Positions 33,731 through 64,000 of a stretch of DNA of 64,000 nt are shown here, piece after piece; within the stretch, counting starts at the first letter, position 1; every line of letters starts with the position of its first letter. The DNA comes from Thermoplasmatales archaeon SW_10_69_26. Its GTDB lineage: Archaea > Thermoplasmatota > SW-10-69-26. Location: contig PXUB01000022.1 of the NCBI GenBank assembly GCA_003009755.1, positions 16,963-80,962 of the forward strand. The letters are read 5' to 3'. A program made the translations under genes and the position numbers. A model generated the notes under the pieces. It was not told where the DNA came from. It was given only the letters and a program-made list of their open reading frames with translations, and ran no database searches.

Positions 33731-34277
33731 AGCGGCTTCACGTCGCTGTCACGGGGCGTCGTGACACGGCGCCGGGGAATCGCTCGCACCTCCACGCTGC
33801 GGGGCGAGGCCCTAACCGGCAGAGACCGCCTTAAGCGGTTCCCCTGCCGCGTTGGGGTCCGAGAGGTCGTCGGAGTGCCAGCATGTGCAGGACCTCTCCC
33901 CTCCCCGGTACGCGCTCGTCGCCGTTCCACTGTTCTCAACCCGAGGCAGCGCTCGGACTGGCACTCCGGCGGCGGCCGAGCGTTTACCCCTCCCGCGGAC
34001 GCGGATCCTGGCCGGGCCCTGGAAAGGCTCTTGGATGGGATGCCTCCGCGGGAGGATCCCCTTCACTCGATCCAGATCCCCACATCGAAAAGCAGCCCAC
34101 CGTGCCGGCGAGCCCCTGCGTGGGCGGGGGCGATGACCCGGCCTCATGTTCATCCCCTGCTGCTCCCGCGATCACTCCGCGGGACCTCCATCCATCTCCG
34201 CCCGCCGGCTTGCCTCGCAGGTACCCACCTGTCCCTCTTGAGCGAGGGTGCATCCTGCCGGCGGGCGCATCCACTCT

Positions 34278-34460
34278 ATGGGTGTACACACCTTCGTCAT
34301 CGAGACCGATAGCACGATCGCGGACACCGACGCCCTCGAAGACCTCGTCAAGCTCCTCGAGGACCACGACGACGTCGGCGCGATCAAGGACGCCGGCGAC
34401 TTCCACGACACCGTCGCCGGTCACCTGCTCGGACGCGACGGACCGCCCGAGCTCTCCTGA
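34278..34460 (+). CDS. Small acidic hypothetical protein
   Basis: Halophile-like codon usage; followed by a GC hairpin. Confidence 0.55.
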   Translation: MGVHTFVIETDSTIADTDALEDLVKLLEDHDDVGAIKDAGDFHDTVAGHLLGRDGPPELS

Positions 34461-34790
34461 CGGTCCCGGTCCTAGCCCCGGCCCGACCGGGCCGGGAGCC
34501 TTCCCCTCCTGCTCACACAAGCGGGATCGCGTAGCCGTGCCCGCGGATTGGACGCCGCGGCAGGCCACGCGCAACCGGTCCCGCATCGGCCGCTTCCACC
34601 CTCGATCGTCTTACTCAGTCTACGGGAACCTCGACGGTGGTCTCTCTCAGATCGCAATCCACGGGAGCGGCCCCTCCCCCCTCTCACACGTCACGACCCG
34701 GGTGCCCCCTGACCTTCTCCAACAGCCTCCCAAGCCTCCACACTCAGGGGCGCCCGGGTCCGACCCTCACCCCTCAGAGGGAGGCTCGCC

Positions 34791-35195
34791 ATGACGAAAC
34801 CCGGCCCCGACCCCGGGCACGGCGGACGCCCACGCCTACCCTGCGAGATTTGCCACCGCCCGAGAGACAGCGACCGCCCGGCGCGAGCCCTCCGGATGAA
34901 CCGTCACGGTCACGAGATCCGCGCCTGCGAGCGCTGCCTCGAGGCCGCTGAGACCACGCGAGACCGCCGCCGGGCCGACCCCAGCGGTCTCGGCCCTGAC
35001 TCCTCACGAGAGGAGATCATCGCCGACCTGCGAGCCAGAACCCCCATCACGATCGCCAGCGGCGACGCCGAGACGATTACCGTTCACGAGGCCGATCACG
35101 ACGCCGTCACCGAGACCGACGACGGCGTCCTCGTCGATCCCAGTCCTTCCCATCACGACAGGAACGGACAGGAGGTGAACGGCGGAGCGCCGTAA
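34791..35195 (+). CDS. Viral hypothetical protein with CxxC pair
   Basis: GGAGG RBS; 'CEIC' and 'CERC'. Confidence 0.6.
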   Translation: MTKPGPDPGHGGRPRLPCEICHRPRDSDRPARALRMNRHGHEIRACERCLEAAETTRDRRRADPSGLGPDSSREEIIADLRARTPITIASGDAETITVHEADHDAVTETDDGVLVDPSPSHHDRNGQEVNGGAP

Positions 35196-35438
35196 CGCCC
35201 AACGAACGCGTCACACCCATCCGTAGGGTGTGAAGAAGAACGAGGGAGGGAGCGGGCACCGGTCCCCTACCCGGGACCGGAGCAGAGAAGGCCCGCCCCA
35301 TGCCCCCTGCCATCCGGGGCGTAGATGAGCGTATGCAGCCCGAAGGTAAAGAAGTTGCGATGCGCGCGCACGCGCGCAGAAAGCGCTCGGCCCTCGTTAC
35401 GCGTTCGTTACGCGTAACGTGCCACAACGCCGCATACG

Positions 35439-35861
35439 ATGTTCGTCGACGATCGAGACAACACACCGAACCAGGAGACGAAAGCCGCGCGCGCCTACGA
35501 GACCGACCTCGAGAACATGGCGGAGGAGATGCCGAACATGACGACCTCTGACCGGATCCGCGCCGCCTGGCGAGCCTACCAGAAGCAGGAGGCCGACCAC
35601 CCGTACGCGGGCGCGGTGAAGAACCTCGAGGACCGGATGCGCCAGCAGGGCTACACCGAGGAGGCCGACGTGTTCGACCTCCTGTTCGCTCTCTTCCAGC
35701 AATGGGCGCGGAACCCGGGGCGGCGCGAGCACGCGGTCGGCATCGTGACGGAGGCCATCATCGACGCGATCGAGCACGAGAGCGAGACCAGCTGCGACGA
35801 CGCTGGGGAGGGTTCGTCCCTCAGCATCCGGCCGAACCCTGCGGCGGAGGTGGACTCGTGA
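35439..35861 (+). CDS. Viral hypothetical protein
   Basis: Acidic ORF, first of the coupled early cluster. Confidence 0.65.
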   Translation: MFVDDRDNTPNQETKAARAYETDLENMAEEMPNMTTSDRIRAAWRAYQKQEADHPYAGAVKNLEDRMRQQGYTEEADVFDLLFALFQQWARNPGRREHAVGIVTEAIIDAIEHESETSCDDAGEGSSLSIRPNPAAEVDS

Positions 35862-36082
35862 CCTCGTGCGTCGCGTGCGAGGACGGCGACGGGACCGAGG
35901 TCCCGGCCGAGCTCGGGTTCCTCGAGGTCCCGTTCCTGTGCGCGGACTGCCGGCAGGCAGCCCAAACGCCACCCATGGATGGGTCCACGTTCACGCTTCC
36001 TCGGGAACGCGAGGCGTTCCTCGAGCATCGCGAGAACGTTCTGGGCGTCCAAGACGAGACGGACGCGGAGGTGGCCGCCTGA
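35858..36082 (+). CDS. Small Zn-ribbon protein
   Basis: GTGA overlap, RBS, 'CVAC'/'CADC'. Confidence 0.6.
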   Translation: MTSCVACEDGDGTEVPAELGFLEVPFLCADCRQAAQTPPMDGSTFTLPREREAFLEHRENVLGVQDETDAEVAA

Positions 36083-36360
36083 TGCCCGTCTGGCGGCGCC
36101 GCATCAGTCCCGGTGAAAGCCCAAGCCGCAAGCTGCCCGGTCCCGAGGAGAGCCTCGAGAATCAGGACATCCCGCGGCACCGGACGTGCAGCACGACCGA
36201 CTGCTACGAGATCCCCGTCATCCCGACGGAGGACGGCTACCGATACAAGCGCGAGGGCGAGACCCGGTACTGCGAGGGTTGCGAGACGGCAGCCGACCAG
36301 GCCGAACGCGACCACGATCGCGCCCAGCACCTCGAGATGACGCAGGGGGACTCATTGTGA
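36082..36360 (+). CDS. Small Cys-containing viral protein
   Basis: TGATG coupling; 'CSTTDC'/'CEGC'. Confidence 0.55.
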   Translation: MPVWRRRISPGESPSRKLPGPEESLENQDIPRHRTCSTTDCYEIPVIPTEDGYRYKREGETRYCEGCETAADQAERDHDRAQHLEMTQGDSL

Positions 36361-36629
36361 GCCTGGTTCCGCCGCAGGATCAGCGCTCGCTCGCCGAGCT
36401 CCGGGAGACCTGCGGGAATAGGCTGGACAAGCAGAAGATCGCCGTGCTCGTCCTCGACGAGCATGACGATCCCGTGCCGGCCCGCGTCATCGCCGACCAG
36501 GTCCACAGGTACGGTGGCATCAGCTCCTGCGAGGCCGCGACCGCGCTCCGCACGCACCCCAGCGTCGAGCACGAGACCTGCCCAGACCGGGGCGTCCACG
36601 TCTACTGGACCACGGAGGGGGAGACGTGA
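36357..36629 (+). CDS. Viral hypothetical protein (possible wHTH)
   Basis: GTGA coupling on both sides. Confidence 0.55.
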   Translation: MSLVPPQDQRSLAELRETCGNRLDKQKIAVLVLDEHDDPVPARVIADQVHRYGGISSCEAATALRTHPSVEHETCPDRGVHVYWTTEGET

Positions 36630-37198
36630 CTCTCCTCGGCATCGACCCCAGCCTGCGGAACACCGGCGTCGTCAGCCTCGACCCGTCGATGGGCACGATC
36701 ACCCGCGTCGAGGTTATCCGCACAAGCAAGCAGGCCGACCGGAAGAACCTGCGCGTCGGCGAGGACGATCTCCGCCGAGCCCGACGCATCGCTCGCGAGC
36801 TCGAGCAGCTCGTCGACCAGGAGCAGCCCGTCGCCGTGTTCGGCGAGCTTCCCGGCGGCTCCCGATCGAACCGCGCGTCCAAGGGCTTCGGCATCGTGCT
36901 CGGCGCGATCGGCGCCGTCACCGAGCTGCGCGACCTCCCCACCGGATGGGAGACCCAGTTCGCGCTGAAGAAAGCCTGCACCGGCGACGGGCAGGCGACC
37001 AAGACCGCGGTCGCCGACCACGTCCAGGACCACTACGCCTGGGAGGACGAGCTCCCGGACGCGAAGACCCGCCGGCAGCACGTGTTCGACGCGGCCGCGG
37101 CCCTGTACGCGAACCGCGAGTGCGACCTCTACCGCATGGCCGTCCAGCAGTCCACCCCTCACGCTTCAGCCGCTCAGCAGGAAGGTGAACACACGTGA
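36626..37198 (+). CDS. RuvC-like Holliday junction resolvase
   Basis: 'LLGIDPSLRNTG', 'VFGE', 'LKKACTGDGQATK', 'HVFDAAA'. Confidence 0.85.
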   Translation: MTLLGIDPSLRNTGVVSLDPSMGTITRVEVIRTSKQADRKNLRVGEDDLRRARRIARELEQLVDQEQPVAVFGELPGGSRSNRASKGFGIVLGAIGAVTELRDLPTGWETQFALKKACTGDGQATKTAVADHVQDHYAWEDELPDAKTRRQHVFDAAAALYANRECDLYRMAVQQSTPHASAAQQEGEHT

Positions 37199-39105
37199 CC
37201 GAACAGACCGACCAGCGCGGCCTCGGCGCCTACGCGCCCGAGCTCGCGCCCGACCTACCCGACGCGACCACCGTCCGGATCAGCCTCAACGAGCTGCATC
37301 CGGGCGACGAGAACCCGAGAGAACAACTCGACGACATCGAACCCCTCGCCCAAAGCATCGCGAGCGAGGGCCTCCAGAACCCCATCGCCGTCCGCCCGAA
37401 CGGCGACGGGTTCGAGATCGTTCACGGCCACCGCCGCTACGCTGCCCTCGACCAGTTAGGCGTTGAGGACGCGCCTTGTCTCGTGCGCGAGGACCTGGAC
37501 GATGAGGGCACCGCGCTGGCGCGCACGATCGAGAACCACCAGCGCGCCGACCTCACCCCCTACGAGGAAGCCCACAGCTTCCAGGTCGCGCTCGACACCG
37601 GCCTCACCCAGGCCGAGCTCGCCGAGCGCGCCGGCGTCAGCCCGGACACGATCCGCCGACGCCTCAAGCTGCTCGACGTCCCCGAGGACGTCGCCGAGAA
37701 GGTCGGCACAACGACCGGGTACTCGATGGAAATCGCCGACCTCGTCCGCGACCTGATCCTGGCGAAGGACGACGTCGACGACGGGTTCCAGGACCACGTC
37801 GACACGATGATCGAGCACACGATCGAGAAACTGCCCGCCGTCAACCACAACGGCCACACCCAACGCGTCGACAGCTGGGCGCGCAACGTCTCCCACAAAT
37901 GGGCCCAAGCCGGCCTGGTGGTCGGTCACTCCTTCAAACGCGACGTCGGGCTCAGCCACCAAGAGAAAGCGTGGTTCAACGAGACCGACCACCCGCGTGT
38001 CCAGGAGCTCCACGAGGAGCTCGACGAGCTCGAGTCCATCTCTTGGATGGACCACCAGGGCGAGGAGTACCAGGAGGTCATCGACCTCGACGGTTACGCC
38101 CGCATCATGGGGGAGGCCGCTGGCCTCTACGAGGACGCCCACGAGGACGATGACGACGACGGGAAGACTCTAAGACAGCGCCGCAACCGACTGAAGCGAA
38201 AGCAGCGAAGCGCCGTCAAGAGCGCCACGAAGCAACGCGTCCGCGACACCGTGAGCGAGAAACTCGCCGGGCGTGTAACCACGTTCGACCAAGCCCGAGA
38301 CAGCCTCGCCCGCATCCGCCTTCGCTCCGCGTCCTGGTGGAACCCGGACAAGCGCGACATCGCCACGATCGCCGAGACCGTCGACGTCGATGTCGCCCGC
38401 CTCGAAGACGTGTTCGGGGGTCGAGCTGGGAACGAGGAGGCGATGGACGAGCTCGTCGACGGCCTGCTCGAGAGCGATGATACGGGCGCCGCCTTGGCCC
38501 GGTTCTGGCTGAGCGTCGAGATTCTCCGCCAGGAGCCCGCGGACCCGACTACGCCCGAGGTCAACACCTGGTCCGAGATCGCGAAGGAGTGGCTCGGTGG
38601 AACGCCTGCCCAGCTGGCACAGTGGAGCCGTCAAAGCCTCGAGGCCAACGGCGAGCTACCGCCGTCGTCGCCGACGGTCCGCCTCGCCCGCGAGTCCACG
38701 CCGAACGAGGACGGCGAGATGGAGCACCTCGCGCAAGCCGTCTCGAAGGGGTCCCGTGCCTTGTGCGGGCACCGGTTCGAGGACGTCGAGACGGCGGACG
38801 AGACCCAGGCCGGCCAGTGCGAGGCGTGCTGGGACATGGCCGACGAGTACGACCTGACCATCCTCACCGGCGAACGCGCCACCAAGGAAGACCTCGAGGC
38901 TGTGCTCGACACGCTCGGGGAGTACGTGGACCCGGGCATCCCTCTCGATCGGACCCTGCCCGACCTCGCGCCGAGCGATCTGCGGGACCTGGCCGACGAC
39001 CTGGGCGTCCCCGACGACGTCGACGACGAGGACATCATCGTCGCCGTGAAGGAACAAATCCCCGCGGAGGCCGACATCGGGGAGGAAGGTGGCGACGATG
39101 GCTGA
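37195..39105 (+). CDS. ParB/Spo0J-family protein with long C-terminal extension
   Basis: 'GLQNPIAVR', 'IVHGHRRYAA', 'IENHQRADL', HTH 'TQAELAERAGVS'. Confidence 0.88.
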   Translation: MTEQTDQRGLGAYAPELAPDLPDATTVRISLNELHPGDENPREQLDDIEPLAQSIASEGLQNPIAVRPNGDGFEIVHGHRRYAALDQLGVEDAPCLVREDLDDEGTALARTIENHQRADLTPYEEAHSFQVALDTGLTQAELAERAGVSPDTIRRRLKLLDVPEDVAEKVGTTTGYSMEIADLVRDLILAKDDVDDGFQDHVDTMIEHTIEKLPAVNHNGHTQRVDSWARNVSHKWAQAGLVVGHSFKRDVGLSHQEKAWFNETDHPRVQELHEELDELESISWMDHQGEEYQEVIDLDGYARIMGEAAGLYEDAHEDDDDDGKTLRQRRNRLKRKQRSAVKSATKQRVRDTVSEKLAGRVTTFDQARDSLARIRLRSASWWNPDKRDIATIAETVDVDVARLEDVFGGRAGNEEAMDELVDGLLESDDTGAALARFWLSVEILRQEPADPTTPEVNTWSEIAKEWLGGTPAQLAQWSRQSLEANGELPPSSPTVRLARESTPNEDGEMEHLAQAVSKGSRALCGHRFEDVETADETQAGQCEACWDMADEYDLTILTGERATKEDLEAVLDTLGEYVDPGIPLDRTLPDLAPSDLRDLADDLGVPDDVDDEDIIVAVKEQIPAEADIGEEGGDDG

Positions 39106-39871
39106 GACGGTCAAAACGGTCAAGACGGTGCACTCTGAGCGCGAGCCGGTGGCCTCGTGCAAGATTTCGAGCGCGAACCTCCAGTACCTCCTCGACTGGG
39201 TGTCAACCATCAACGGGGAGGTGAAGCTTGAGCTCGACGGTGGCACGCTGTCGTATCGGGAGATCGGCGCGGCGCACGTCTGCATGGTCACCGGCAGTGC
39301 GCCCGTGCTTGAGCAGGAGGGCGAGGCCGAGATCGGGGTCGACGTCGACCTCGTCACGGACCTGCTCAAGCCGGTGCCGATCGCGGCGCCCGACCCGTTC
39401 CGGCTCGAGGTGTACGAGGCGGGCCCGCTCGTTCTCGAACACGCTCGCTATGAGTACGAGCTCCAGGTCCTCGACACGAGCGGCATGACGGATCCGAAGG
39501 ACCCGGACCTCGAGCTCCCCTGCCGGTTCACGATCACGGCGCGGGACTGGAGCAACTTCCTCCGCCGCGCGGACAAGGCCAGCTCCTACATCAAGCTCGC
39601 CGGGCACCCGGACGGCGTCACAGGGACTGCCGAGGGCGACCAGGTGTCCCTCACGCACAAGCTCGACTGTGACGAGCACGAGTTCGACAGCGGGCACGAG
39701 GACCAGGTCGCCAGCCTGTTCAGCCTGGACTACCTGGACAGTTTCCGAAAGGCGCAAAGCTTCCAGGGAGACGTCCGCTTCCGGCTGGGGAACGACTACC
39801 CGATCGACTGGGAAGCTCGCCCCGGCGAGTGCGTGCTGACGGGTCAACTGGCGCCGCGCATCGAGGACTAA
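39098..39871 (+). CDS. Viral PCNA sliding clamp (divergent)
   Basis: 'AHVCMV', 'SLFSLDYL', 'LGNDYPI', C-terminal 'LAPRIE'. Confidence 0.85.
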   Translation: MAETVKTVKTVHSEREPVASCKISSANLQYLLDWVSTINGEVKLELDGGTLSYREIGAAHVCMVTGSAPVLEQEGEAEIGVDVDLVTDLLKPVPIAAPDPFRLEVYEAGPLVLEHARYEYELQVLDTSGMTDPKDPDLELPCRFTITARDWSNFLRRADKASSYIKLAGHPDGVTGTAEGDQVSLTHKLDCDEHEFDSGHEDQVASLFSLDYLDSFRKAQSFQGDVRFRLGNDYPIDWEARPGECVLTGQLAPRIED

Positions 39872-39917
39872 CCATGTCGGACGTCACCGACGAGGACGAG
39901 GACGGGGGTGAGGCGTG

Positions 39918-40406
39918 ATGGTGGGTGGCCTGTCGAATAGCTTCCAGGAGCACGTCAGCGTCGGCGAGGCCGCGTTCGGGCTATTCCAAGAGCACCTGCC
40001 CGTCGACGAGTGGGCCAAGGAGGCCGCCGACCGCCCCGCCAAGCGCGAAGCCGAGGGCGAGGACCACGAGCCGGACGAGCTGTACGAGGTCGCAGAAGAC
40101 CATCGGCACGTGTTCATCGAGGCGTGGAGCGAGGTCCGCGCACTCCTCGAGGAGGAGGGCTACGAGACGAAGGAGTTCCACGAGCAGGTGATGGGCCACT
40201 CGTCAGGTGCGACGTGCGCGTGGTGCCACCCCGACCTCGACGGCACCTGGCAGATCGTCGGCCCCGACGGCGACCCCTGGTTCGGCGAAGGCAGCCCGAA
40301 CCCGGTGTTCCAGGCGTTCTTCGACCAGGCGCGCGAGCAGCTGCCGCAGCCGGTGTTCGAGGCCGCGTTCCCGATGAGCGACTACGAGACGGACGGTGAG
40401 GCGTGA
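39918..40406 (+). CDS. Viral hypothetical protein
   Basis: Coupled acidic ORF with an 'H...CAWC' motif. Confidence 0.6.
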   Translation: MVGGLSNSFQEHVSVGEAAFGLFQEHLPVDEWAKEAADRPAKREAEGEDHEPDELYEVAEDHRHVFIEAWSEVRALLEEEGYETKEFHEQVMGHSSGATCAWCHPDLDGTWQIVGPDGDPWFGEGSPNPVFQAFFDQAREQLPQPVFEAAFPMSDYETDGEA

Positions 40407-40762
40407 TGGCCAGCCGACCGAAGACACTTGAGGAACTCCTCGACCTCCTCCACGAGAGGGCCGGCGCGGACGGGCTCGACGTCCGCATCGAAGCATCAAC
40501 GGAACACGACGAGTTGAGCGAAGTCACGCCCGTCGAGGTCACCGTCTCCCTTCCCGCTGGTGGGAGGACTGTGGCTGAGGAGTCCAATCCCTGCCGGGAG
40601 ATGGATCTCAGCACGGCGCTCTACCGCGTCGTCCGTCGCGTCCTCAGAGAGCGCGAGCGGGGACACTACGAGGACTGGCAGCCCGACGGAGACGACGTCC
40701 AATCCGTCGAGATGGGAGCCCTGCTTGAAGAGGACGAGGACGGAGGCGAGGCGGATGGGTAG
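40406..40762 (+). CDS. Viral hypothetical protein
   Basis: Coupled acidic ORF. Confidence 0.55.
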   Translation: MASRPKTLEELLDLLHERAGADGLDVRIEASTEHDELSEVTPVEVTVSLPAGGRTVAEESNPCREMDLSTALYRVVRRVLRERERGHYEDWQPDGDDVQSVEMGALLEEDEDGGEADG

Positions 40763-40877
40763 GACCATCCGCATGGCCTGCCGCTGCCCGACCGGGAGCA
40801 GCGCCATGCTCCAGGACCACATGGACCGAGAGGGCGAATGGCAGGTCCGGCTCTGCCGCTACGGAGGTGACGCCTGA
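40755..40877 (+). CDS. Tiny Cys-containing viral protein (40 aa)
   Basis: RBS upstream; fills the gap between coupled ORFs. Confidence 0.4.
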   Translation: MGRTIRMACRCPTGSSAMLQDHMDREGEWQVRLCRYGGDA

Positions 40878-41071
40878 TGGATCTTACCGGCGCCGAGACC
40901 GACGGGGACCGGCCGGGCGTCTGCGATACCGACGGTTGCGGGCGCCCGGCAGCGTTCGGGAGATGTCGACCCTGTCAGCGCGCCTGGAGACGCGGCAAGG
41001 AGTACGCGACCGACCGCATCGAGGCGCGGATCCGAGAGAAACTGCTCGGCGGGGTGGTCGACCGTGCCTGA
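40877..41071 (+). CDS. Small Zn-finger viral protein
   Basis: 'CDTDGC..C..C'; GGAGGTG RBS. Confidence 0.55.
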   Translation: MDLTGAETDGDRPGVCDTDGCGRPAAFGRCRPCQRAWRRGKEYATDRIEARIREKLLGGVVDRA

Positions 41072-42376: not shown

Positions 42377-42389
42377 GACGGTGACACCC

Positions 42390-44286: not shown

Positions 44287-44303
44287 CTTACAACTCCCAC
44301 TCC

Positions 44304-55845: not shown

Positions 55846-55856
55846 CGCGCCGTAAC
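55839..55856 (+). promoter_or_regulatory. 18-bp viral motif, copy 2
   Basis: Identical to 47466-47483; precedes the tail genes. Confidence 0.6.
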
Positions 55857-55946
55857 CAAGCCCCATCCCCACGCTGGGAGAGATAAGCCGCCGGCGGGCG
55901 TCCAAACGAGGACACCTGCCTCCAACGGCCGAACGAGGCCACCTGC

Positions 55947-56417
55947 ATGGCGCAAGCCGTACCCCACGACGAGCTGTCCGCCCAAATCGTCCGCGATCTG
56001 CTCAGGGATGAGCTGCGCGCAGCCGTCGCAGACGGCACGATCGACGACCCGCGCGCCGCCAGTCGCGACGACGAGATGGTGCTCACCAGCTTCCCCGACG
56101 AGTCCATCGTGTACCCCCTCGTCATCGTCGACGAGGCCAACGACGCCAGCGACGCCATCCACATGCAGCGCGTCGCCCACCAGCACGACTACGACGTGCA
56201 GATCTCAATCGCCGGCGACAACAAGACGCACGTCAAGATCCTCCGCGACCAGGTGCGCGGCTGGGTGCTCAGCAACGCCGTCGACCTCGCCGGTCAGGGG
56301 TTCATGGATCTCTCGATCGCCAGCAGCACACCCGCTGCGTTCGAGGACCGCGACCGCGCCCTGCAGTGGCAGTTCACCATCGCCAGCAATGTCATCACCG
56401 GAGAGAATCCCGCATGA
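55947..56417 (+). CDS. Tail terminator-like protein
   Basis: Position; 'FP....YP.VIV', 'VQISI'. Confidence 0.65.
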   Translation: MAQAVPHDELSAQIVRDLLRDELRAAVADGTIDDPRAASRDDEMVLTSFPDESIVYPLVIVDEANDASDAIHMQRVAHQHDYDVQISIAGDNKTHVKILRDQVRGWVLSNAVDLAGQGFMDLSIASSTPAAFEDRDRALQWQFTIASNVITGENPA

Positions 56418-56590
56418 CGACCAAGCCTGCGGACCCGGTCACCGTCGAGCTCGCCGAAGACGTTCAGCGCCTCGTCACGCCAAGCTTCCAGCTCGTGGGC
56501 GACGAGACCATCACGATCACGCGCCGTGAGTACGAGTCCTACCAGTCCAAGCTGCGACACGCCCAGGGTGTGAACGAACCTGATGAGTGA
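56414..56590 (+). CDS. Small viral protein
   Basis: ATGA coupling (MTTKPADP...). Confidence 0.5.
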   Translation: MTTKPADPVTVELAEDVQRLVTPSFQLVGDETITITRREYESYQSKLRHAQGVNEPDE

Positions 56591-57548
56591 CGACTACCTG
56601 CATGTCGTCGACGACCACGTCGGCGCCGCTGTCGAGACGACCAAGTACAACGAGGAGAGCCTCAACCAGGGCGACTACCTCGGCTACCTCGTTGAGGAGA
56701 TCGAGTGGCCGAATCCCAACCCGCAGGGCCCCCTCCCGCACAAGGGAACCAAGCGAGGCCCCTATGCTCACGCTCCGGAGGCCAAGTCCTACGAGTGGGA
56801 TATCGAGGTCGTTCCCATCGACTCAACGATTCCGCTCGAAATCGCGCTCGGCACCCGCACCGAGAGCACCGTCGACACGGACGGGGATAGCGCCGACGAG
56901 TACCAGGAGGTCGTCTTCACGGAAGCCGCCAAGCTCTCCACGGCCACGATCCGGCGCGTGCAAACGGATCTGAGCCTCGCACAGAGCTACATCGGGACCA
57001 AGACTGGGCTCAACATCAGCTGGGCGCTGAACGAGCCGCTCAGCATCACATTCAACTGCGTGGCCGCCCGGATGAACTACGACACCAATCCCCCCAGCCC
57101 TCCGGACTTGGACCCACCTGTCAAGGCGCCGTTCATGGGGTGGATGCTCGGGTCGGCCACGATCGACGGCCAGGAGTTCGCCACGATCGAGGGCGGCGAC
57201 GTCAGCGTCGACCACGGCCTCGAGAGCGTGCCCGGCGGTGACGGCGGACGCGAAGGCCACTACGTGAGCGAGGAGACCGGCGCCGAGCTCTTCGACGCCA
57301 GCCTCTCGATGACCGTTACTGACACCTACCTCTTCGAAAAGGTAGCCACGGACGGTGCCCTCTTCGACGTCGAGGCACCCCTGCACCGCGACCGTACGAA
57401 CGACCCCGTCCACGACGCCTTCATCCTCACGCTCGGCGACAACAAGGCCTTGGACGCGCCCGTCAGCAGCCCCGACGAAGGCCGCGTCGTCGACGACGTC
57501 GAGCTCAGCCCGAAGAGCATCCAGATCGAGATCCGCGACCCCCTGTGA
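56583..57548 (+). CDS. Major tail tube protein
   Basis: Position before chaperone and TMP; beta-rich 321 aa. Confidence 0.75.
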   Translation: MSDDYLHVVDDHVGAAVETTKYNEESLNQGDYLGYLVEEIEWPNPNPQGPLPHKGTKRGPYAHAPEAKSYEWDIEVVPIDSTIPLEIALGTRTESTVDTDGDSADEYQEVVFTEAAKLSTATIRRVQTDLSLAQSYIGTKTGLNISWALNEPLSITFNCVAARMNYDTNPPSPPDLDPPVKAPFMGWMLGSATIDGQEFATIEGGDVSVDHGLESVPGGDGGREGHYVSEETGAELFDASLSMTVTDTYLFEKVATDGALFDVEAPLHRDRTNDPVHDAFILTLGDNKALDAPVSSPDEGRVVDDVELSPKSIQIEIRDPL

Positions 57549-57559: not shown

Positions 57560-58039
57560 ATGCAGGAACCCGACGAGAACGACGAGATCAACGAGGAGCC
57601 CGACGAGTGGGCCGACGTCAAGAGCCTCCCCTGGGACGAGGGGCTCCGCAAGGGCCGCGAGATGCGGGAAAGCACCAAGACCTACATCCTCAAGGTGCTC
57701 GACGAGGACGGCGACGTCGAAGGCATCATGCTGTTCGAATACGGCATGCTCAGCCCCGGCGAGCGCGACCAGGTCCAGAAGGCCAGCGTCAAGACGAACA
57801 CCAAGCGGCGCGAGTCCCAGCAGGAGGTTAACCAGGAGAAGCTCGTCACCGAGCTCCTCATCAAGGGAATCCGCCAGGGGCCGGAGGGGTTCACGCCGAC
57901 GCGGCAAAGCGTCGCAGAGTTCTACTCGACGTTCCCCGAGGCAGCTGAGGATCTCGCCAACTGCATCGACGAGTTCAGCGAGATGGAGCCCGAGGTGAGG
58001 AAGAAGTTTCGTCCGGGCCGGGCGCGGGAAGAAGGTTAG
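57560..58039 (+). CDS. Tail assembly chaperone (short form)
   Basis: Between tube and TMP; ends '...RKKFRP' over TTT-CGT. Confidence 0.75.
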   Translation: MQEPDENDEINEEPDEWADVKSLPWDEGLRKGREMRESTKTYILKVLDEDGDVEGIMLFEYGMLSPGERDQVQKASVKTNTKRRESQQEVNQEKLVTELLIKGIRQGPEGFTPTRQSVAEFYSTFPEAAEDLANCIDEFSEMEPEVRKKFRPGRAREEG

Positions 58040-58250: not shown

Positions 58251-59714
58251 GTGGCCGTGAGCGAGGTCGCGCTCCGCTACGCCGCGAAGGGTGCCGACAA
58301 GGCCAAGCGCAAGGACCAGCAGGTCGCTCAGCAAACCCAGAAGACTGCGCGCATGGCCAAGCGCGAGGCGCCGGCCATCCGCTCCTGGATGCGCGAGCAC
58401 CGGGCCGCGATCGCCGCGATCGGGACCGCTACCGCCGGCGCGATGGCTGCCATCATCAACGCTACGCCCTCCCTCCAGGCCAGCCTGGGTGGCATCCGTC
58501 TCGCGTTCTCGCTCGTCGCCATGCAGATCGGGAGCGAACTCACTCCCGCGTTCCTCGAGGCCGAGGAGGGCGCACTCGACCTCGCTCAAGGCTTCCTCAA
58601 GCTCGACGAGAAGCATGACGGGCTCCCGGCGAAGATGCTCGGCCTCGGTCTCGCCATCGCCACGGTCGGGGCCGCGGCCGCGCTCGCTGGCCCGAAGCTG
58701 GCGGTCGCAGGTGCCGCGCTGGCTCCGTTCGTCATCCTCGCCGGGATCGCGATCGGTGTCCTCGGCGGGCTGGAGGGCAACCTGGGCCTGGTCGCTGCAG
58801 GCTTCCTCACAACGGCCGCAGGCGTCGCGATGCTGGCCGGCCAGCTCGCTCTGGCCCTCCCCCTGGCGCTCGGGGTCGCCGCCGTAGGCTCCACGCTGCT
58901 CACCATCTGGGGGGTGATGGAGGGGAAGCTCTGGGCGGTCGTCGCCGGCGTGGGCGGCCTCATCGCGAGCGTCGCCGGCCTGCTCGCCTTCTTCGGGAAG
59001 CTCGTCGCCGTCATCAAGGTCATCGGCGCTGGGATCGCGATCCTCGCCAGCGCCCTCGGCATCAGTTTCGGCAGCGCTGTCGTCCTGGTCGTCGGCCTCA
59101 TCGTCGGCCTCATCGCCACCCTCTGGGCCCTGTTCACGAACTGGGATGCCGTCACGAGCGAGGTCGCCAGCGCCGGCGACTGGCTGGCCCGACAAGCTGG
59201 CCGGTTCTGGGGTTGGTTCACTGGCCACATCCCGAGCCGGGCTGAGATTTCGAACGCCGCCAGCGGCATGGTCTCGTGGTTCTCGTCGCTGCCAGGCCGT
59301 GCCCGGCAGTGGGGCGAGGACATGATCGACGAGTTTGTGAGCGGCATCCAGAGCGCGGGTGACCGAGTTGGGGACGCCGTCGGTGGCGTGAAGGACCGCA
59401 TCGTCGGCATGATCGGGTTCGACCTCCGTCGCAACGACCGTATGGCGGAACGCTGGGGGCGCGACTTCATCGACCACTTCACCCAGGGCATCGACAGCCG
59501 GATGTCCTCGCTGGACGCGAGCCTCGGCCACTTCGGTCAGGGGGCGCTGCCGACGCCTCGCGGCGGTGGCGGCGGTGGCGCGATCACGGTCGTGCTCGAG
59601 CAAGGTGCCGTCCAGCTTCGCGGGCAGCCTCGCCGGAGCGACCTCGACGAGCGCGACCTGGCTGAGGAGATCGGGAAAGCGTTCGCCGACCGGTTCGGAG
59701 GGCGGAGCTCGTGA
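58251..59714 (+). CDS. Tape measure protein
   Basis: Ala/Gly-rich, hydrophobic central part, Trp-periodic 'NWDAV..DW..FW'. Confidence 0.8.
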   Translation: MAVSEVALRYAAKGADKAKRKDQQVAQQTQKTARMAKREAPAIRSWMREHRAAIAAIGTATAGAMAAIINATPSLQASLGGIRLAFSLVAMQIGSELTPAFLEAEEGALDLAQGFLKLDEKHDGLPAKMLGLGLAIATVGAAAALAGPKLAVAGAALAPFVILAGIAIGVLGGLEGNLGLVAAGFLTTAAGVAMLAGQLALALPLALGVAAVGSTLLTIWGVMEGKLWAVVAGVGGLIASVAGLLAFFGKLVAVIKVIGAGIAILASALGISFGSAVVLVVGLIVGLIATLWALFTNWDAVTSEVASAGDWLARQAGRFWGWFTGHIPSRAEISNAASGMVSWFSSLPGRARQWGEDMIDEFVSGIQSAGDRVGDAVGGVKDRIVGMIGFDLRRNDRMAERWGRDFIDHFTQGIDSRMSSLDASLGHFGQGALPTPRGGGGGGAITVVLEQGAVQLRGQPRRSDLDERDLAEEIGKAFADRFGGRSS

Positions 59715-60271
59715 GTGTCATTTACAGCGACTTCGCGCTCTACACGTTCGACGCGGCCGCCGGAGGGAAAGGAGACACGGTCGCCTACCTGCTTCCCAAC
59801 GCTGAGCTCAACCACCGGCACAAAAACCAGGTAGAGGCCCGCGTCATCAAGGACGAGCAGGGTGGTCCCCGCGCCCGCGACCAGGGCGTCATCCGGAACG
59901 AGGTGAACATCAGCGGCACGTTCCTTCCAACCAACGCCAGCGACCTCCCGGACGAGCACAAGCAGGGTTTGCGGGACCTGTTCGGCCAGGCCGAGGTCAG
60001 CGACCAGGACCAGGTCAACCGGCTCGCCTACTACCTCACGAAGGTGGGCGCCCCGTTCATCCTCGAGGACCTCGACGAAGGCATCACCTACGACGTCGGA
60101 TGGCACAACCGTGCCGAGGCGTGGGGGGCCGAGGACGAGAACGCCTACGAGAACGGCCGTTACCCCATGCTATGGATCCGCGACGTCGACACGATTGACG
60201 CCAGCCGACGCCTCGGCGAGGAGTACACGATCAAAGCCCATACCGGGTTCCAGAGCATCGAGGAGGCCTAA
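59711..60271 (+). CDS. Distal tail (Dit-like) protein 1
   Basis: After TMP; paralog of the next gene. Confidence 0.6.
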   Translation: MSVIYSDFALYTFDAAAGGKGDTVAYLLPNAELNHRHKNQVEARVIKDEQGGPRARDQGVIRNEVNISGTFLPTNASDLPDEHKQGLRDLFGQAEVSDQDQVNRLAYYLTKVGAPFILEDLDEGITYDVGWHNRAEAWGAEDENAYENGRYPMLWIRDVDTIDASRRLGEEYTIKAHTGFQSIEEA

Positions 60272-60272
60272 C

Positions 60273-60764
60273 GTGTCCCGGCACGAGACGACCGTCCTCA
60301 CACACCACGTGACCGGGGACACGGTCGCCTACCTCGCTCCCGGGTTCGACGTCCAGCGCACACTCAAAGTCCAGCTTGATGGTGACGAGCCTGCCAGCCT
60401 CGTCCACCCATTCATGCGGCTCTTCGAGCAGCGGAAGGTCGTGCCCGAGGTTCGTGTGCGCGGCCGGTTCCGCAGCAGCGACGACCTCCCTCCCGATCAC
60501 GCGACCGATCTTGAGCAGCTGTTCGGCAAGAGCGTCGTCACAGAGTGGGACCAGATCAACCGGCTCACGCACTACCAGTACGTCCACAGAGGCCCCTACA
60601 ATCTCGACCACCGCGAGGACACGTATCGCCACACCGAGGAGGCTGACGTCGACATCCGGAACGGTGAGTACCCCACGGTGTTCTTGAAGGATTTCCGTCC
60701 CGACGACGAGGCGGGCCACGCGATCGAGTTCGTGCTCACGTTCTTCGTCGCGAGGCCTGTGTAG
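60273..60764 (+). CDS. Distal tail (Dit-like) protein 2
   Basis: Shares 'GDTVAYL.P', 'DLP..H...L..LFG', 'DQ.NRL', 'NG.YP' with the previous gene. Confidence 0.6.
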   Translation: MSRHETTVLTHHVTGDTVAYLAPGFDVQRTLKVQLDGDEPASLVHPFMRLFEQRKVVPEVRVRGRFRSSDDLPPDHATDLEQLFGKSVVTEWDQINRLTHYQYVHRGPYNLDHREDTYRHTEEADVDIRNGEYPTVFLKDFRPDDEAGHAIEFVLTFFVARPV

Positions 60765-60765
60765 C

Positions 60766-62100
60766 ATGGCGGTCCCGGGCTGGCAGCTGCGCAACGTCAC
60801 CGAGGGATTCATCGAGGACGCGCTGCTCAACGTTCACGTCAAAGACACCTTCGAACGCTTCAGTCGCGAGGCCACAGTCTGGATCGCCGACCCCGACGGC
60901 AGCAAGCGCAACAGCTACCTGGACTTCACTGAGTGCATGCTCCGCGTTGGTCCCCCTCGCAGGCACGCCCACACGCTGGCATCCGATCCCGACAACGGCG
61001 AGACCCACACATTGCTCACCGACGGCGGGCACACGCTTCTCAGCAGTCCGACAGCCGAGAACCGGTTCGGCGGGTTTGTGAGGAACCCCCATGAGGAGGC
61101 CGGCGTCCTCCGGCTGGACCTGCTCAGCCACGACACCTGGCTCCGGAAGCGCGACATCTTCTACACCGCCAACCAGCAGGGCATCGAGGACACGTTGCAG
61201 GACCTCGTCACCCGGTTCACGCCGCTCGTTTGGAACCCCAATCTCGTCGACGTGCAGAACGATCGCACCATCGACCGTTCCTGGAAGGGTGAGCGCCTGG
61301 TCACGGTCATCGAAGAGCTCGCCACGAAGAGCGACGGGGAGGAGTTCGGCGCCACCGACGACCGCGAGTTCTTCTTCCGCCCGCGGGAGGCCCAGGACAG
61401 TCCCGTCAGCTTCACGCCCGACCGCTGGGATGACTACGACATCGACGGGGACGCCGGGCGCGAGGTTACCCGCGTCACGATTTACTACGGCCAGAGCGGT
61501 GAGAACGCCGTCACCGTCCAAAACCGCGAGCGCCAGCTCGAGCTGCAGGAACGCCTGGGCGCCGACAGGCCCGTAATCCAGGAGAAAACCAAGAGCTTCC
61601 CCGAAATCGAGACCGAGGAGGCCGCCGAGGAGAAAGGGCACAGCATCCTCGACCGGCGCGACGCGATCAAGGTCCTCGAGCTCGAGACGTGGGATGCTCA
61701 CGGTGTCCGCCCGGGCGACGTCGCACCCGTCGTGATTCCTGAGAAGAACGTCGACGACGAGTTCCGCGTCGCCGAGATCGTGTACCGCTGGATCGAGGAC
61801 GACACGCTCGTCACGCTCGCCCGGAACGCGGAAGGCGTCGTCGACCTGCTCGTCGAGCTCAGCGAAGACCTCACCCGCATCGACCTCCGCGCCGGCAGCG
61901 ACGAGGCGACGATCACAGAGATGCTGGAGTTCGAGGTCTACCAGGAGAACAGCGTCAAGGTCGAGGTCCTCGAACGGTCAATCCCCGACGACCAGTTCCA
62001 GTGGGGAGAGCACAAGGGCGGCTGGGGCGATCCCGCCGGTGGCCCCGGAGGCAGGTGGGGAGACAACATGGGCGCGTGGACTCAGCACACAGAGGTGTAG
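60766..62100 (+). CDS. Baseplate hub/tail tip protein
   Basis: Position; 'EFFFRPR', 'VRPGDV..V', 'FRVAEI'. Confidence 0.7.
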   Translation: MAVPGWQLRNVTEGFIEDALLNVHVKDTFERFSREATVWIADPDGSKRNSYLDFTECMLRVGPPRRHAHTLASDPDNGETHTLLTDGGHTLLSSPTAENRFGGFVRNPHEEAGVLRLDLLSHDTWLRKRDIFYTANQQGIEDTLQDLVTRFTPLVWNPNLVDVQNDRTIDRSWKGERLVTVIEELATKSDGEEFGATDDREFFFRPREAQDSPVSFTPDRWDDYDIDGDAGREVTRVTIYYGQSGENAVTVQNRERQLELQERLGADRPVIQEKTKSFPEIETEEAAEEKGHSILDRRDAIKVLELETWDAHGVRPGDVAPVVIPEKNVDDEFRVAEIVYRWIEDDTLVTLARNAEGVVDLLVELSEDLTRIDLRAGSDEATITEMLEFEVYQENSVKVEVLERSIPDDQFQWGEHKGGWGDPAGGPGGRWGDNMGAWTQHTEV

Positions 62101-62104
62101 AACT

Positions 62105-62464
62105 GTGGCCAGTTACCGAACCAACGACGGACTCGAAACCCTCTCCGAGGGCGACGCGAAAAGGACCGAGCAGCTCGCCATCGGTACCGGCGACGCTGAC
62201 GCCAGCGTGGACGATACCAGCCTCGAGAACGAAGTGCTCCGCAAGGCCGCGGAGAGCGAGGTGCAGGGAGACGGCGAGGTGCTGCACACGATGCGCGTCC
62301 TCAGCGGCGAGGCCAACGGGGCCACGCTTCGCGAGGCTGGCCTCATCGACAACCAGGACCGCCTGTCGACCACGCACCGGTACGCCGGACTCGAGAAGAC
62401 GACGGACAAAGAGATCGAGTTCCGGGTGACCAGCCAGCACGACCAGGCCGAGGAGGGCGTCTAA
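62105..62464 (+). CDS. Tail fibre-collar/baseplate-like protein
   Basis: 'LAIGTG......DTSLENE', 'EANG.TLREAGL'. Confidence 0.65.
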   Translation: MASYRTNDGLETLSEGDAKRTEQLAIGTGDADASVDDTSLENEVLRKAAESEVQGDGEVLHTMRVLSGEANGATLREAGLIDNQDRLSTTHRYAGLEKTTDKEIEFRVTSQHDQAEEGV

Positions 62465-62465
62465 G

Positions 62466-63923
62466 ATGCGCACGCAAACCGACCACGACTTCTCGTGGGC
62501 GAACGAGATGAATGCCGTCGCCGATGCTGGCAAGCAACGGTTCGTCATCGAGGGCTGTCAGGCCTCGAAGGGCACGGGCGACCTCGAGGTTGACATCGCC
62601 AGCGGGCAGATCCACATCGACGGGTCCACAATCGACGTGGACGCGCAAACCGTCACTGTCTCCGGCAACCCCGACATCAAGCGCTACGACACAATCACCA
62701 TCAACGCGGACGGGACCGCGAACGTGATCGAAGGGACAGAGGAGGCAACCGCGCCTGCTCGGCCAGAGGGCGAGGTGTTCGTCGCGATCGTCGAGGTCCG
62801 GCAGGGGGCCACGCAGGTCGAGGCTGTCTACGACGGGCGGGCGTTCCTCGAGGTGTACGTCACCGAGAACCGGACACTCAAGGGTGGCGCCGGCATCCTC
62901 CCAATCGGCGACCTCAGCGAGGACCGGACCGTGGCCGCGGCTATCGGAGACGGCATCCGGGCCGACAGTGATGACGCGCTCGCCGTCAAGCCCCATACAG
63001 ACATCGCCGTCGGGAGTAGTGGCGTCGCTGTCGACCCGCCAGGAAGCGACCGTGAGATTCTATTCAACGACGCGGGCAGCCTCGGCGCAGACGCTGACCT
63101 ACGTTACGGCTATACTGGCGCCTCGCTTGACAAGGAGCTGAAGATCCAGGCTCCCGCTGGCTCGTCACCCCATCTGACGGCCAGCGGCGTCGGCGACGCC
63201 GGCGCAATCCTTGACCTCATCGTCGGCAACGACGACAACGGCAACCCCGACGGGAACGCCGTCATCAACCTCGAAGGCAAACAGGGCGAGGGGTTCACTC
63301 TGTTCGGCAATCTCAACAGGGAACCGATGGAGTACGAGTGGCTTGACGGCCTCGGCAACTTCCCGCTCCGATGGGTCCGAGACACAAGCGCGCCCCGGCT
63401 CCCAGACGTGACGAGCGAGACCGCCAGCAGCGACGTGCAGCTCAACTCGGACAACCAGTTCGTGATCCCCAGCTCGTCGAAGCGCTACAAGACCGACATC
63501 CAAGCCCCCGACGAGGCTCCGGAGGACGTGCTTGACCTTGAGCCAAAGTGGTACCGGAACGACGAGGGTGAGCTGCGGTTCGGGTTCATCGCCGAAGACG
63601 TCGCTGAGGTCCTGCCCGAGGTCGTCGGGTGGCGGCCCACGCATCGGGAGGTCAAGCGGATCAAGGACGACCACGAGTTCATCCCCGCCGAGGACTCCGA
63701 GACGGACCAACCTGAGTTCAGGACTGACCGCCGCGTCGTCCGAGAACGGGAGTTCGACGAGGAACGGCTCGGCGCCGTCGACGACGAGTACCTCGAGCAG
63801 TACGAGGAGGATGGCCAGGTCCCGGACACGGTGAACGAGAAAGAGCTTGTGCCGCGCCTGGTGGCGATTGTGAAGGAGCAGGAGGAGCGCATCCAGGCCC
63901 TGGAGGAGAGGCTGCCTTCGTGA
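62466..63923 (+). CDS. Tail fibre with C-terminal peptidase S74 intramolecular chaperone
   Basis: 'SSKRYKTDI', 'FGFIAEDVAEVLPEVV', terminal coiled coil 'IVKEQEERIQALE'. Confidence 0.85.
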   Translation: MRTQTDHDFSWANEMNAVADAGKQRFVIEGCQASKGTGDLEVDIASGQIHIDGSTIDVDAQTVTVSGNPDIKRYDTITINADGTANVIEGTEEATAPARPEGEVFVAIVEVRQGATQVEAVYDGRAFLEVYVTENRTLKGGAGILPIGDLSEDRTVAAAIGDGIRADSDDALAVKPHTDIAVGSSGVAVDPPGSDREILFNDAGSLGADADLRYGYTGASLDKELKIQAPAGSSPHLTASGVGDAGAILDLIVGNDDNGNPDGNAVINLEGKQGEGFTLFGNLNREPMEYEWLDGLGNFPLRWVRDTSAPRLPDVTSETASSDVQLNSDNQFVIPSSSKRYKTDIQAPDEAPEDVLDLEPKWYRNDEGELRFGFIAEDVAEVLPEVVGWRPTHREVKRIKDDHEFIPAEDSETDQPEFRTDRRVVREREFDEERLGAVDDEYLEQYEEDGQVPDTVNEKELVPRLVAIVKEQEERIQALEERLPS

Positions 63924-63924
63924 T

Positions 63925-64000
63925 TTACTCGTCGATGTTCCGTTCCGGATCGGCGTAGAAGGCGTCGAACGAGAGGTCATATCCCCGCCAAAGGACGATC
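63925..64000 (-). CDS. 3' end of a convergent gene (partial)
   Basis: Minus frame reads ...IVLWRGYDLSFDAFYADPERNIDE*. Confidence 0.4.
   Translation of the reverse strand, partial: IVLWRGYDLSFDAFYADPERNIDE

Follow-up and report, generated by a model that had tools for sequence, protein, structure and literature searches.

A probable siphovirus-type provirus, assembled in two pieces, in the genome of an uncultured halite archaeon

The window analysed here is a stretch of 64,000 nucleotides, bases 16963–80962 of contig PXUB01000022.1 (C22) from the assembly of Thermoplasmatales archaeon SW_10_69_26. Its right part carries the genes of a tailed virus. Together with the end of a second contig of the same genome bin (C7), this part very probably represents a temperate siphovirus-type virus of the class Caudoviricetes, about 36 kb in size, which resides as a provirus in the chromosome of an uncultured archaeon from halite with a salt-in strategy and has been recovered as two pieces. 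The gene content is that of a tailed virus, and the element is related to HRTV-28 (Halorubrum tailed virus 28), with which it shares the gene order. The two contigs are linked, a 29-nt repeat flanks the element, and the host is not a haloarchaeon.

Composition and Extent of the Element

The genome bin comprises 2.82 Mb in 49 contigs with 69% GC; according to CheckM-type figures it is 95% complete and 2% contaminated. Since the GC content is near 70%, reading frames were picked by third-position GC (GC3). The region between 34.2 and 63.9 kb of the window is a single tailed-virus block, with nearly all credible genes located on the plus strand. Early genes and genes of DNA metabolism occupy 34.2–42.1 kb, and a complete morphogenesis module follows on the plus strand at 42.2–63.9 kb. 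A first-pass annotation, made from the letters of the window, had described a near-complete, integrated siphovirus-like provirus with acidic proteins that begins at position 34200, and this description was borne out. Its start was close to the first credible viral open reading frame (ORF), which begins at 34248, and a candidate left attachment (att) repeat lies at 33397–33425. The proteins are indeed acidic, with a median pI of 4.55 across the 32 window ORFs; three of these have a pI above 10 and are probably read in wrong frames.

The hallmarks of Caudoviricetes, namely the major capsid protein (MCP), portal, large terminase subunit (TerL), and maturation protease, are all located in one module, as shown by Pfam, PHROG, and HRTV-28 matches, and all hallmark ORFs are intact in the Pfam and PHROGs searches. 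Judging by its sequence, the MCP is of the HK97 type. The tail module is non-contractile and contains the tube, chaperone, tape measure, and hub (PF18906 and homologues of HRTV-28 gp33–38), and no ORF matched a tail-sheath family in Pfam or PHROGs. The GC content is 66–68% in the virus and 70% in the host. To the left of 33.2 kb, the contig carries host genes for XPD helicase, an ABC/iron transporter, purA, TFB, dCTP deaminase, GNAT, zf-CHY, and a BBE oxidase; the latter is the last host gene on the left and ends at 33197. The contiguity with archaeal housekeeping genes, pointed out earlier, is thereby confirmed.

No integrase, repressor, polymerase, or MCM was found in the window using Pfam, PHROGs, and NCBIfam. 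A tRNA scan of the window returned none, and no Rfam family reached the threshold in it. The first-pass annotation had listed the same absences, and for the repressor, polymerase, MCM, and tRNA they stand. For the integrase and att site they hold within the window only, as a serine recombinase gene and a copy of the 29-nt repeat were found on C7. The advice had been to look for them further to the right, but C22 stops at window position 64000; the element is therefore cut short by the assembly break, not by the edge of the window.

Right End of the Element on a Second Contig

A BLAST comparison of the viral part with the whole genome gave one match: its last 99 bases (63902–64000) recur unchanged, and with the same orientation, as the final 99 bases of C7. 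Many contig ends in the bin overlap by exactly 99 bases, which points to an assembly graph with k = 99, and 13 converging pairs of ends occur, each marking the edge of a repeat. Since C22 and C7 each end, on their inner side, in one and the same 99-mer, the element must contain this sequence twice, in inverted orientation. The repeat starts 22 nt before the stop codon of the fibre gene and also holds the 3′ end (24 codons) of a minus-strand gene of no assigned identity, for which no other copy was found in the genome or in any locus compared. The 99-mer had no exact match among IMG/VR or JGI metagenome contigs.

At its end, C7 carries on the minus strand two small genes, the genes of a PD-(D/E)XK exonuclease and an Erf protein, and a further pair of small genes. 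The plus strand encodes a serine recombinase with Resolvase and Recombinase domains (C7 55689–56651). Below 55.5 kb, C7 contains host genes. With C7 reversed, the right end of the element reads as two small genes, Erf, exonuclease, two small genes, the convergent recombinase gene, and then host DNA. The functions that are expected of a temperate siphovirus and lacking in the window are those encoded at this end.

The assembled element is 35.3 kb in length, of which the left 30.5 kb are located in the window and the right 4.8 kb on C7. Related genomes are similar in size: an uncultured relative of 36,769 nt (36.8 kb), HRTV-28 (35.3 kb), and two IMG/VR relatives with terminal repeats (34.1 and 37.6 kb). 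From the difference between 35.3 kb and the 36.8-kb relative, the gap between the two pieces probably measures about 1.5 kb, and an internal inverted repeat with a length of 99 nt or more is probably located there. For the MCP, recombinase, and Erf protein, the best non-self homologues are each found on a contig of 36,769 nt; given the equal size and the same source, they would share one contig. We consider C22 and C7 to carry one element because of the shared 99-mer, the 29-nt repeat, the synteny of the flanks in relatives, and the homologues on the 36,769-nt contig.

Contig C39 was tried as the missing segment and provisionally rejected, being 54.7 kb long with ordinary host genes (ABC transporter, DUF389, VWA) at its ends. 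No other contig begins with the reverse complement of its own last 99 nt, and C39 (54,741 nt) is thus a stretch bounded by inverted repeats. One of its ends carries genes for a C5 DNA methylase and a PAPS-reductase-like protein.

Flanking Repeats and Integration Site

The candidate attL core is a 29-nt sequence at 33397–33425 on the plus strand, which matches the reverse complement of C7 55527–55555 at 28 of 29 positions. The C7 copy lies about 130 nt upstream of the recombinase gene. When C7 is read reversed after C22, the two 29-mers become direct repeats flanking the element. With five mismatches allowed, the 2.8-Mb genome contains only three copies, the third being a diverged one at 33715–33743. 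In the window, the core forms part of a pair of 86-nt direct repeats on the plus strand (33339–33424 and 33657–33742), which are 94% identical and 318 nt apart. Each of them ends in the 29-nt core and carries a TTAAAAA box resembling a TATA box, as well as a small hairpin (CTCAtcgTGAG). To the left of the core, 57 nt are common to both window copies and absent from the C7 copy, a pattern that a simple duplication of the att site does not account for.

The host genes on the two outer flanks are neighbours in three family-level relatives. A contig of the first (G004:C48, without N) carries two C7-flank genes, zf-CHY, DinB, and GNAT, followed by thiolase-like and TFB genes. In the second (G002:C81, also without N), the same two C7-flank genes are present, and zf-CHY and DinB are 375 nt apart. 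The third (G003:C187, interrupted by two gaps of 10 N each) carries zf-CHY and DinB together with three further C7-flank genes. The strands in all three genomes fit the order of the window (+) followed by the reverse of C7. Thus, the element has what a provirus should have: host DNA on both sides, flanks that are adjacent in relatives, and a recombinase gene together with direct repeats matching at 28 of 29 positions. A search for the empty site through the BBE oxidase gene was given up, as the homologues in six relatives are only 39–44% identical and no C7-flank genes are located beside them.

Run X1, the halite metagenome holding 95% of the sampled words, was used for the estimation of depth. 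The word depth was 9.67 for the host-flank contig and 8.8, 7.64, 6.8, and 6.72 for four virus contigs; in general, virus contigs ranged from 6.7 to 8.8 and host contigs from 9.5 to 11.3. These values correspond to roughly one virus copy per genome and give no indication of replication. The contigs of runs X1–X4 contained no trustworthy joints at the left junction, as all had sides of 20–25 nt, and neither an attP nor an attB junction was observed among the run contigs.

Relationship to Other Viruses

In the phage collection searched, HRTV-28 was the sole match of the MCP and the only record covering most of the portal-MuF protein; TerL had no halovirus match in this collection. HRTV-28 is the lone member of Suolaviridae in the taxonomy of that record. 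In a tblastn comparison, 13 of the 32 window ORFs match HRTV-28 proteins, with identities of 24–40% and E-values from 2.5e-7 to 5e-74. The matches are collinear, running in the same order from gp08 through the fibre gp42, and comprise gp08, portal-MuF, protease, MCP, adaptor, the Mu gpG-like protein, gp31, tube, gp34, tape measure, gp37, hub, and the N-terminus of the fibre. A search of 34 HRTV-28 coding sequences against the whole genome gave matches on C22 only. The two viruses are thus alike in 13 collinear homologues, in genome size, in their siphovirus-type organisation, and in the acidity of their proteins; however, their TerLs are unrelated at the BLAST level, and they have no early or replication gene in common. 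The annotated record of HRTV-28 is without an integrase, unlike the element described here, and its host is Halorubrum, whereas the host of the window virus belongs to another phylum.

Homologues of the MCP are rare. Among 5.8 billion proteins, 30 were found, the best with 47% identity and the others with at most 43%. MCP relatives occur at 33 loci in IMG/VR (29–42% identity) and at seven loci in species-representative genomes (31–37%); the latter genomes include Haladaptatus pallidirubidus, Halomarina rubra, and metagenome-assembled genomes (MAGs) of Methanoculleus and Nanohaloarchaeota. In the host’s own class, the MCP family was detected in one of 20 other genomes, and weakly (E 1e-4). In an MCP tree of 66 rows, built with a quick maximum-likelihood method and having long branches, the window MCP pairs with its 47% relative (P0002) inside a 29-row clade (support 97), which includes L017, a provirus-like locus from a Nanohaloarchaeota MAG. 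The MCP of HRTV-28 is located in a separate 13-row clade (support 96).

According to the accessible text of Liu et al. (2021), viruses belonging to one family have 20–50% of their proteins in common, and viruses of different families less than 10%. The window virus falls within the range of one family, with 13 of its 36 credible ORFs (29 in the window and seven on C7) matching HRTV-28 at tblastn E ≤ 2.5e-7, a homology threshold that may differ from that of Liu et al.; counted from the HRTV-28 side, 13 of 71 proteins are shared. The portal-MuF fusion typical of Suolaviridae is present as well, with PF04860 and PF04233 in one ORF of 869 aa. The genus name Pormufvirus derives from this fusion. 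The MCP tree, in contrast, keeps the window virus apart from HRTV-28. Because the shared proteins point one way and the MCP tree the other, the virus is best assigned, on present sequence data, to a new genus- or family-level lineage related to Suolaviridae, that is, to a lineage of known kind. The first-pass annotation had suggested a new virus lineage and an MCP phylogeny as a check. It was correct in that no close relative exists, the best MCP being 47% identical and the window MCP lying outside the HRTV-28 clade; it needs qualifying in that the virus, with 13 proteins in common with a Suolaviridae member, is not unrelated to known families.

The accessible part of Liu et al. reports proviruses for six families, and Suolaviridae is not among the six named there. 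A preprint (bioRxiv 10.1101/2025.02.15.638363) places, in the part available, the MCP and portal of HRTV-28 among homologues from nanohaloarchaeal viruses. The DNTV-3-like viruses of Nanohaloarchaeota are connected with HRTV-28 by this grouping and may be connected with the window virus by the MCP clade that includes L017; they differ in that their hosts are Nanohaloarchaeota, whereas the window host has a 2.8-Mb genome and is not a nanohaloarchaeon. The nearest relative is the uncultured virus contig of 36,769 nt (ENA/Logan; P0002, P0032, P0040), with identities of 47% for the MCP, 62% for the recombinase (301 aa), and 65% for the Erf protein. Judging from these three proteins, the two viruses are probably members of one group of genus or family rank, and the relative is probably temperate as well.

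Run X2, a metagenome that a second study (2022) obtained from halite, contains short contigs, within 36770–45543, of this virus or of a close variant. The pieces cover 36770–37264, 38242–38505, 43950–44324, and 45294–45543 at a depth of 2–4, compared with 8–15 for host-like contigs, and the piece at 38242–38505 (264 nt) has no differences from the window. Homologues of the Erf protein (38–41% identity) and exonuclease (34%) were found in two family-level relatives of the host, at about 20.6–25.7 kb of G001:C6 (L108/L109) and at 11.8–13.7 kb of G002:C49 (L110). A TerL-like gene with 25% identity is also located nearby in G001, and the MCP family of the window was not found in G001 or G002. These loci are probably other proviruses in the host family.

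The Host

The 16S rRNA of the host is 76.5% identical to that of Halomarina rubra and 75.7% to that of Haladaptatus pallidirubidus, and at most 88% identical to those of 15 species representatives of its own GTDB phylum. In the 16S tree, the two haloarchaea split off across a long branch with a support of 100. As had been proposed from the window, the host is not a member of Halobacteria. Its class contains 21 species representatives in six families, and its genus consists of this genome alone.

The phylum was examined by gene content. McrA is present in 16 of 151 genomes of the phylum (an even sample), and 15 of these 16 belong to one family with genomes of 1.3–1.9 Mb. The gyrA gene was found in five of five genomes tested, and the RpoB N-terminal domain is located in unsplit frames of 1170 and 1234 aa in two phylum-level relatives. 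Methanogens limited to Methanomassiliicoccales, a gyrase, and an unsplit RpoB fit Thermoplasmatota, and not Halobacteriota or Methanobacteriota. The gene-content tests thus indicate that the host phylum is most likely Thermoplasmatota, and that the host would belong to a small class of it, in agreement with the Thermoplasmatota-like host of the first-pass annotation. Two further searches did not help to narrow down the phylum: among PDB matches of the proteasome alpha subunit and thermosome, entries from organisms that we take to be Archaeoglobus, Methanocaldococcus, and Thermococcus ranked above or beside Thermoplasma, and an Atlas search with purA returned only bacterial clusters. The name Haloplasmatales is given to an extremely halophilic Thermoplasmatota lineage in the accessible part of a preprint.

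In the host itself, the RpoB N-terminal domain (C47:20137–21318) is located in a frame of only 555 aa, and in a class relative (G010) in a frame of 601 aa. The class may therefore have a split rpoB in a phylum that is otherwise unsplit.

The earlier expectation that few proviruses are described in this phylum agrees with a 2026 survey (PMC13573593), whose accessible part gives a count of 30 provirus regions for 5041 genomes of Thermoplasmatota and 2275 of Nanobdellota taken together. A full-text literature search, as far as the indexed texts reach, revealed no virus described for the halophilic branch of Thermoplasmatota.

The Serine Recombinase

The database form of the recombinase has 294 aa, with the PF00239 (1e-24) and PF07508 Recombinase domains, and ends about 20 residues past the latter. 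Its YIRYS motif (YxRxS, with the catalytic serine) aligns to YLRRS of the SPbeta integrase SprA/YokA. The protein also matches a 500-aa integrase chain, which we take to be Bxb1-like, and the gamma-delta resolvase. The match to phrog_95 ‘integrase’ (5.9e-59) is much stronger than that to phrog_125 ‘DNA invertase’ (4.4e-25); it covers positions 87–362 of the 651 of phrog_95, which means that the zinc-ribbon and coiled-coil part is missing. Of the features of a large serine recombinase, the protein therefore has the catalytic domain with its serine and lacks the zinc ribbon and coiled coil. To our knowledge, it is these two parts that control directionality in every phage serine integrase studied. 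Relatives of 301 and 251 aa, in which the short form is kept at 62–63% identity, show that this form is natural.

The large serine integrases (SPbeta SprA, Bxb1, phiC31) are similar in their resolvase-type catalytic domain, YxRxS motif, PF07508, and location of the gene at the prophage edge. However, they are about 200–300 residues longer and normally have no near-identical flanking repeats, whereas this provirus has one of 29 nt. Among five larger IMG/VR records related by the MCP, none contains a Resolvase domain and one contains a tyrosine integrase; no tyrosine recombinase was found with Pfam in any assembled ORF of the element. A 2021 review states, in its accessible part, that archaeal serine recombinases have been seen in transposons and never fully studied. 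In the accessible text of Liu et al., only tyrosine recombinases are listed in archaeal tailed viruses, though the supplements may list more. From its position and family, the 294-aa recombinase would be the integrase, acting at or near the 29-nt repeat.

Alternative Explanations

Several observations weigh against the interpretation of the two pieces as one integrated element with its own integrase. Among the independent (Logan) contigs listed for runs X1–X4, none bridges 33369–34251, which neither supports nor refutes it. The second, diverged core copy at 33715–33743 and the 57 nt shared to its left lack an explanation. The order of zf-CHY and DinB in G002 and G004 is swapped relative to that in G003 and in our model, so that the synteny holds at the regional level and does not define an exact empty site, and neither an att-like sequence nor an empty site was found in relatives (G003:C187 was searched). 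With 13 converging pairs of contig ends in the bin, the shared 99-mer alone marks only a repeat boundary; the location of the three relatives’ genes on one contig is deduced from the equal size of 36,769 nt and the source; and the gap could hold another recombinase. The known phage serine integrases have a zinc ribbon and coiled coil, both missing from this recombinase, and they normally leave no identical repeats of 29 nt. One could suppose, and the first-pass annotation named this as a point that would refute its reading, that the host–virus junction is an assembly or binning chimera, in which a free halovirus contig was joined to an archaeal contig and the true host is a haloarchaeon. The nearest cultured relative does infect Halorubrum, repeats are present in the junction region, and the listed contigs do not span it. 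However, two independent junctions on two contigs enter host genes that lie next to each other in three related genomes, the junction in C22 is passed without any branch, virus and host have similar depths in run X1, and their GC contents (66–68% and 70%) are close. Because both junctions lead into host regions that are adjacent in relatives, a chimera is very unlikely. It is also improbable that the C7 module is a separate integrated element or remnant and the window virus truly truncated or defective. Converging contig ends are common in the bin, the Erf and exonuclease homologues in G001:C6 and G002:C49 occur without this MCP, and searches of IMG/VR and the JGI metagenomes did not yield the gap; against this, the homologues of the MCP, recombinase, and Erf probably co-occur on one 36,769-nt contig, the 29-nt repeat is restricted to the two outer ends, the host flanks are adjacent in three relatives, and the assembled 35.3 kb fits related genomes of 34–38 kb, among them two with terminal repeats.

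The role of the recombinase leaves more to discuss. The enzyme might be an invertase or resolvase that acts on the internal inverted repeat and flips the unassembled segment, with integration carried out by another enzyme, for instance a tyrosine recombinase encoded in the gap or acting in trans, which would suit the flanking 29-nt repeats better. Several features leave room for an invertase: the 29-nt repeat, the internal inverted repeat with its length of 99 nt or more, the size of the protein, which ends soon after the Recombinase domain, and its match to phrog_125. Direct repeats matching at 28 of 29 positions are typical of the att sites of tyrosine recombinases, and the accessible text of Liu et al. 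reports direct repeats at archaeal tailed proviruses and one tailed-virus recombinase that was read as an invertase. Nevertheless, the gene is located about 130 nt from the repeat of the right junction, the usual place of an integrase; PF07508 and the much stronger phrog_95 match place the protein in the large-serine-recombinase branch; the assembled ORFs hold no tyrosine recombinase; and the same short form is kept in two relatives. Overall, we consider an invertase or resolvase unlikely.

Genes of the Window Part

All genes described below are on the plus strand. The first are small early ORFs at 34248–34460 (70 aa), 34791–35195 (134 aa, Cys-rich), and 35439–35861 (140 aa), selected by GC3 and a pI screen. 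The ORFs at 34248–36360 have no family match in Pfam, PHROGs, or NCBIfam, and the gene calls at 35.9–36.6 kb are uncertain. They are followed by genes encoding a RuvC-like Holliday junction resolvase (36626–37198; phrog_159, E 6.9e-24, with Pfam RuvC below the cut-off), a ParB-like protein of 636 aa (37195–39105; PF02195 2.7e-13, phrog_6218 1.1e-41, TIGR00180 1.1e-32), and a PCNA-like sliding clamp (39089–39871; NF002222 9e-31). The ParB-like protein consists of a ParB N-terminal domain, an HTH, and a long C-terminal part of no known type. The clamp, encoded by the virus, is 33.6% identical to the host copy on contig C1 (tblastn). Three ORFs in GC3 frames (39915–40406, 40403–40762, and 41064–42065) are without an assigned function, as no significant family was found for 39915–42065 in Pfam, PHROGs, or NCBIfam.

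The morphogenesis module begins with a candidate gene of the small terminase subunit (TerS; 42216–42845), which overlaps the start of TerL. Its position, a phrog_3678 match (8e-11), and an HGGxSTG domain of 23.7 bits (cut-off 29) suggest that the product acts as TerS. It is followed by TerL (42832–44286; phrog_2 3.4e-24, PF03237 1.6e-6), a homologue of HRTV-28 gp08 (44304–44663; tblastn 32% identity, E 2.5e-7), and the portal fused to a Mu-F-like head morphogenesis domain (44851–47460; 869 aa; PF04860 2.4e-25, PF04233 9.6e-8, phrog_2662 7.7e-67), which is 35% identical to HRTV-28 gp10 across 93% of its length. Next are the prohead serine protease (S78)/scaffold (47510–48646; PF04586 4.2e-5, 39.7% identity to HRTV-28 gp11), the MCP (48649–49929; phrog_25898, 31.6% identity to the HRTV-28 MCP over 98%), head completion or connector genes (49945–50301, 50305–50661, and 50746–50991), and a head–tail adaptor (50998–51567; phrog_442 3e-25, 31% identity to HRTV-28 gp17, SPP1 gp15-like).

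The head–tail gene order is interrupted at 51982–55211 by two large genes, over which the GC content drops to 0.58–0.62. The first encodes a beta-helix protein (51982–53751; PF13229 2.7e-5, just under the cut-off) and the second a beta-propeller-like protein (53748–55211; an Atlas lead to PQQ_2-type propellers with a score of 0.95 and a TM of 0.61); a sequence search of PDB gave no match for either. HRTV-28 has many small ORFs at this position. The two proteins are possibly surface or receptor-binding proteins, or acquired extra cargo, and the low GC content suggests a recent acquisition of both genes.

The tail part comprises homologues of HRTV-28 gp29 (Mu gpG-like) and gp31 (55270–56417; tblastn E 2e-10 and 3e-17), the tail tube protein (56583–57548; PF18906 1e-7, 35.7% identity to HRTV-28 gp33), a tail assembly chaperone-like gene (57560–58039; match to gp34), and the tape measure protein of 487 aa (58251–59714; match to gp36). 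Two distal-tail genes follow (59711–60271 and about 60271–60764), the second of which matches gp37. They are paralogues with 28–31% identity, and their adjacency indicates a tandem duplication of the distal tail protein. The block ends with the baseplate hub (60766–62100; match to gp38) and a tail fibre with a C-terminal S74 intramolecular chaperone domain (62466–63923; PF13884 5.6e-8, phrog_5668), whose N-terminus matches gp42.

Proposed Life Cycle and Significance

The virus would integrate site-specifically at or near the 29-nt sequence, with the BBE oxidase gene on one side and a gene of 488 aa on the other. The non-coding 0.8 kb at the left, with the second repeat copy and the TTAAAAA boxes, probably holds early promoters. 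The assembled parts contain no polymerase or replication initiator of the virus itself, and Erf, the exonuclease, RuvC, ParB, and PCNA may serve a recombination-dependent replication that relies on the host polymerase and other host enzymes. Packaging would be carried out by TerS and TerL, and the head would be built from portal-MuF, protease, and MCP. By the usual rule of 0.15 nm per residue, a tape measure of 487 aa would correspond to a tail roughly 70 nm long. The virus may still be inducible.

Since the provirus is physically tied to the host chromosome, it provides a firm virus–host pair for a fourth, independently evolved salt-in archaeal lineage, and the HRTV-28-type structural module reaches beyond haloarchaea. 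Two features deserve attention, namely the internal inverted repeat and the serine recombinase, which is short and accompanied by candidate att sites; a recombinase so compact is also a possible genetic tool for halophilic archaea. We offer only tentatively, as a doubtful proposal, the combined view that no tailed virus lineage of extremely halophilic Thermoplasmatota was recognisable before this one, that it integrates by a minimal serine recombinase, and that its structural module extends across three phyla. If this were true, a recombinase with catalytic and recombinase domains only, acting at sites with a common core of about 29 nt, would represent a novel mechanistic form of serine integration. 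It would also be an uncommon example of an archaeal virus with a serine integrase. A portal-MuF/MCP/tail module common to viruses of Halobacteria, Nanohaloarchaeota, and Thermoplasmatota would imply cross-phylum exchange in hypersaline habitats. A practical lesson is that the ‘missing’ integrase and att site were located on another contig of the same bin.

Apart from the virus, the GC content of the window dips to 0.59 at 16000–18000, compared with 0.69–0.74 in the genome. Two minus-strand ORFs located there (16279–16863 and 16873–17361) have no Pfam family, and the segment may be another small foreign insert.

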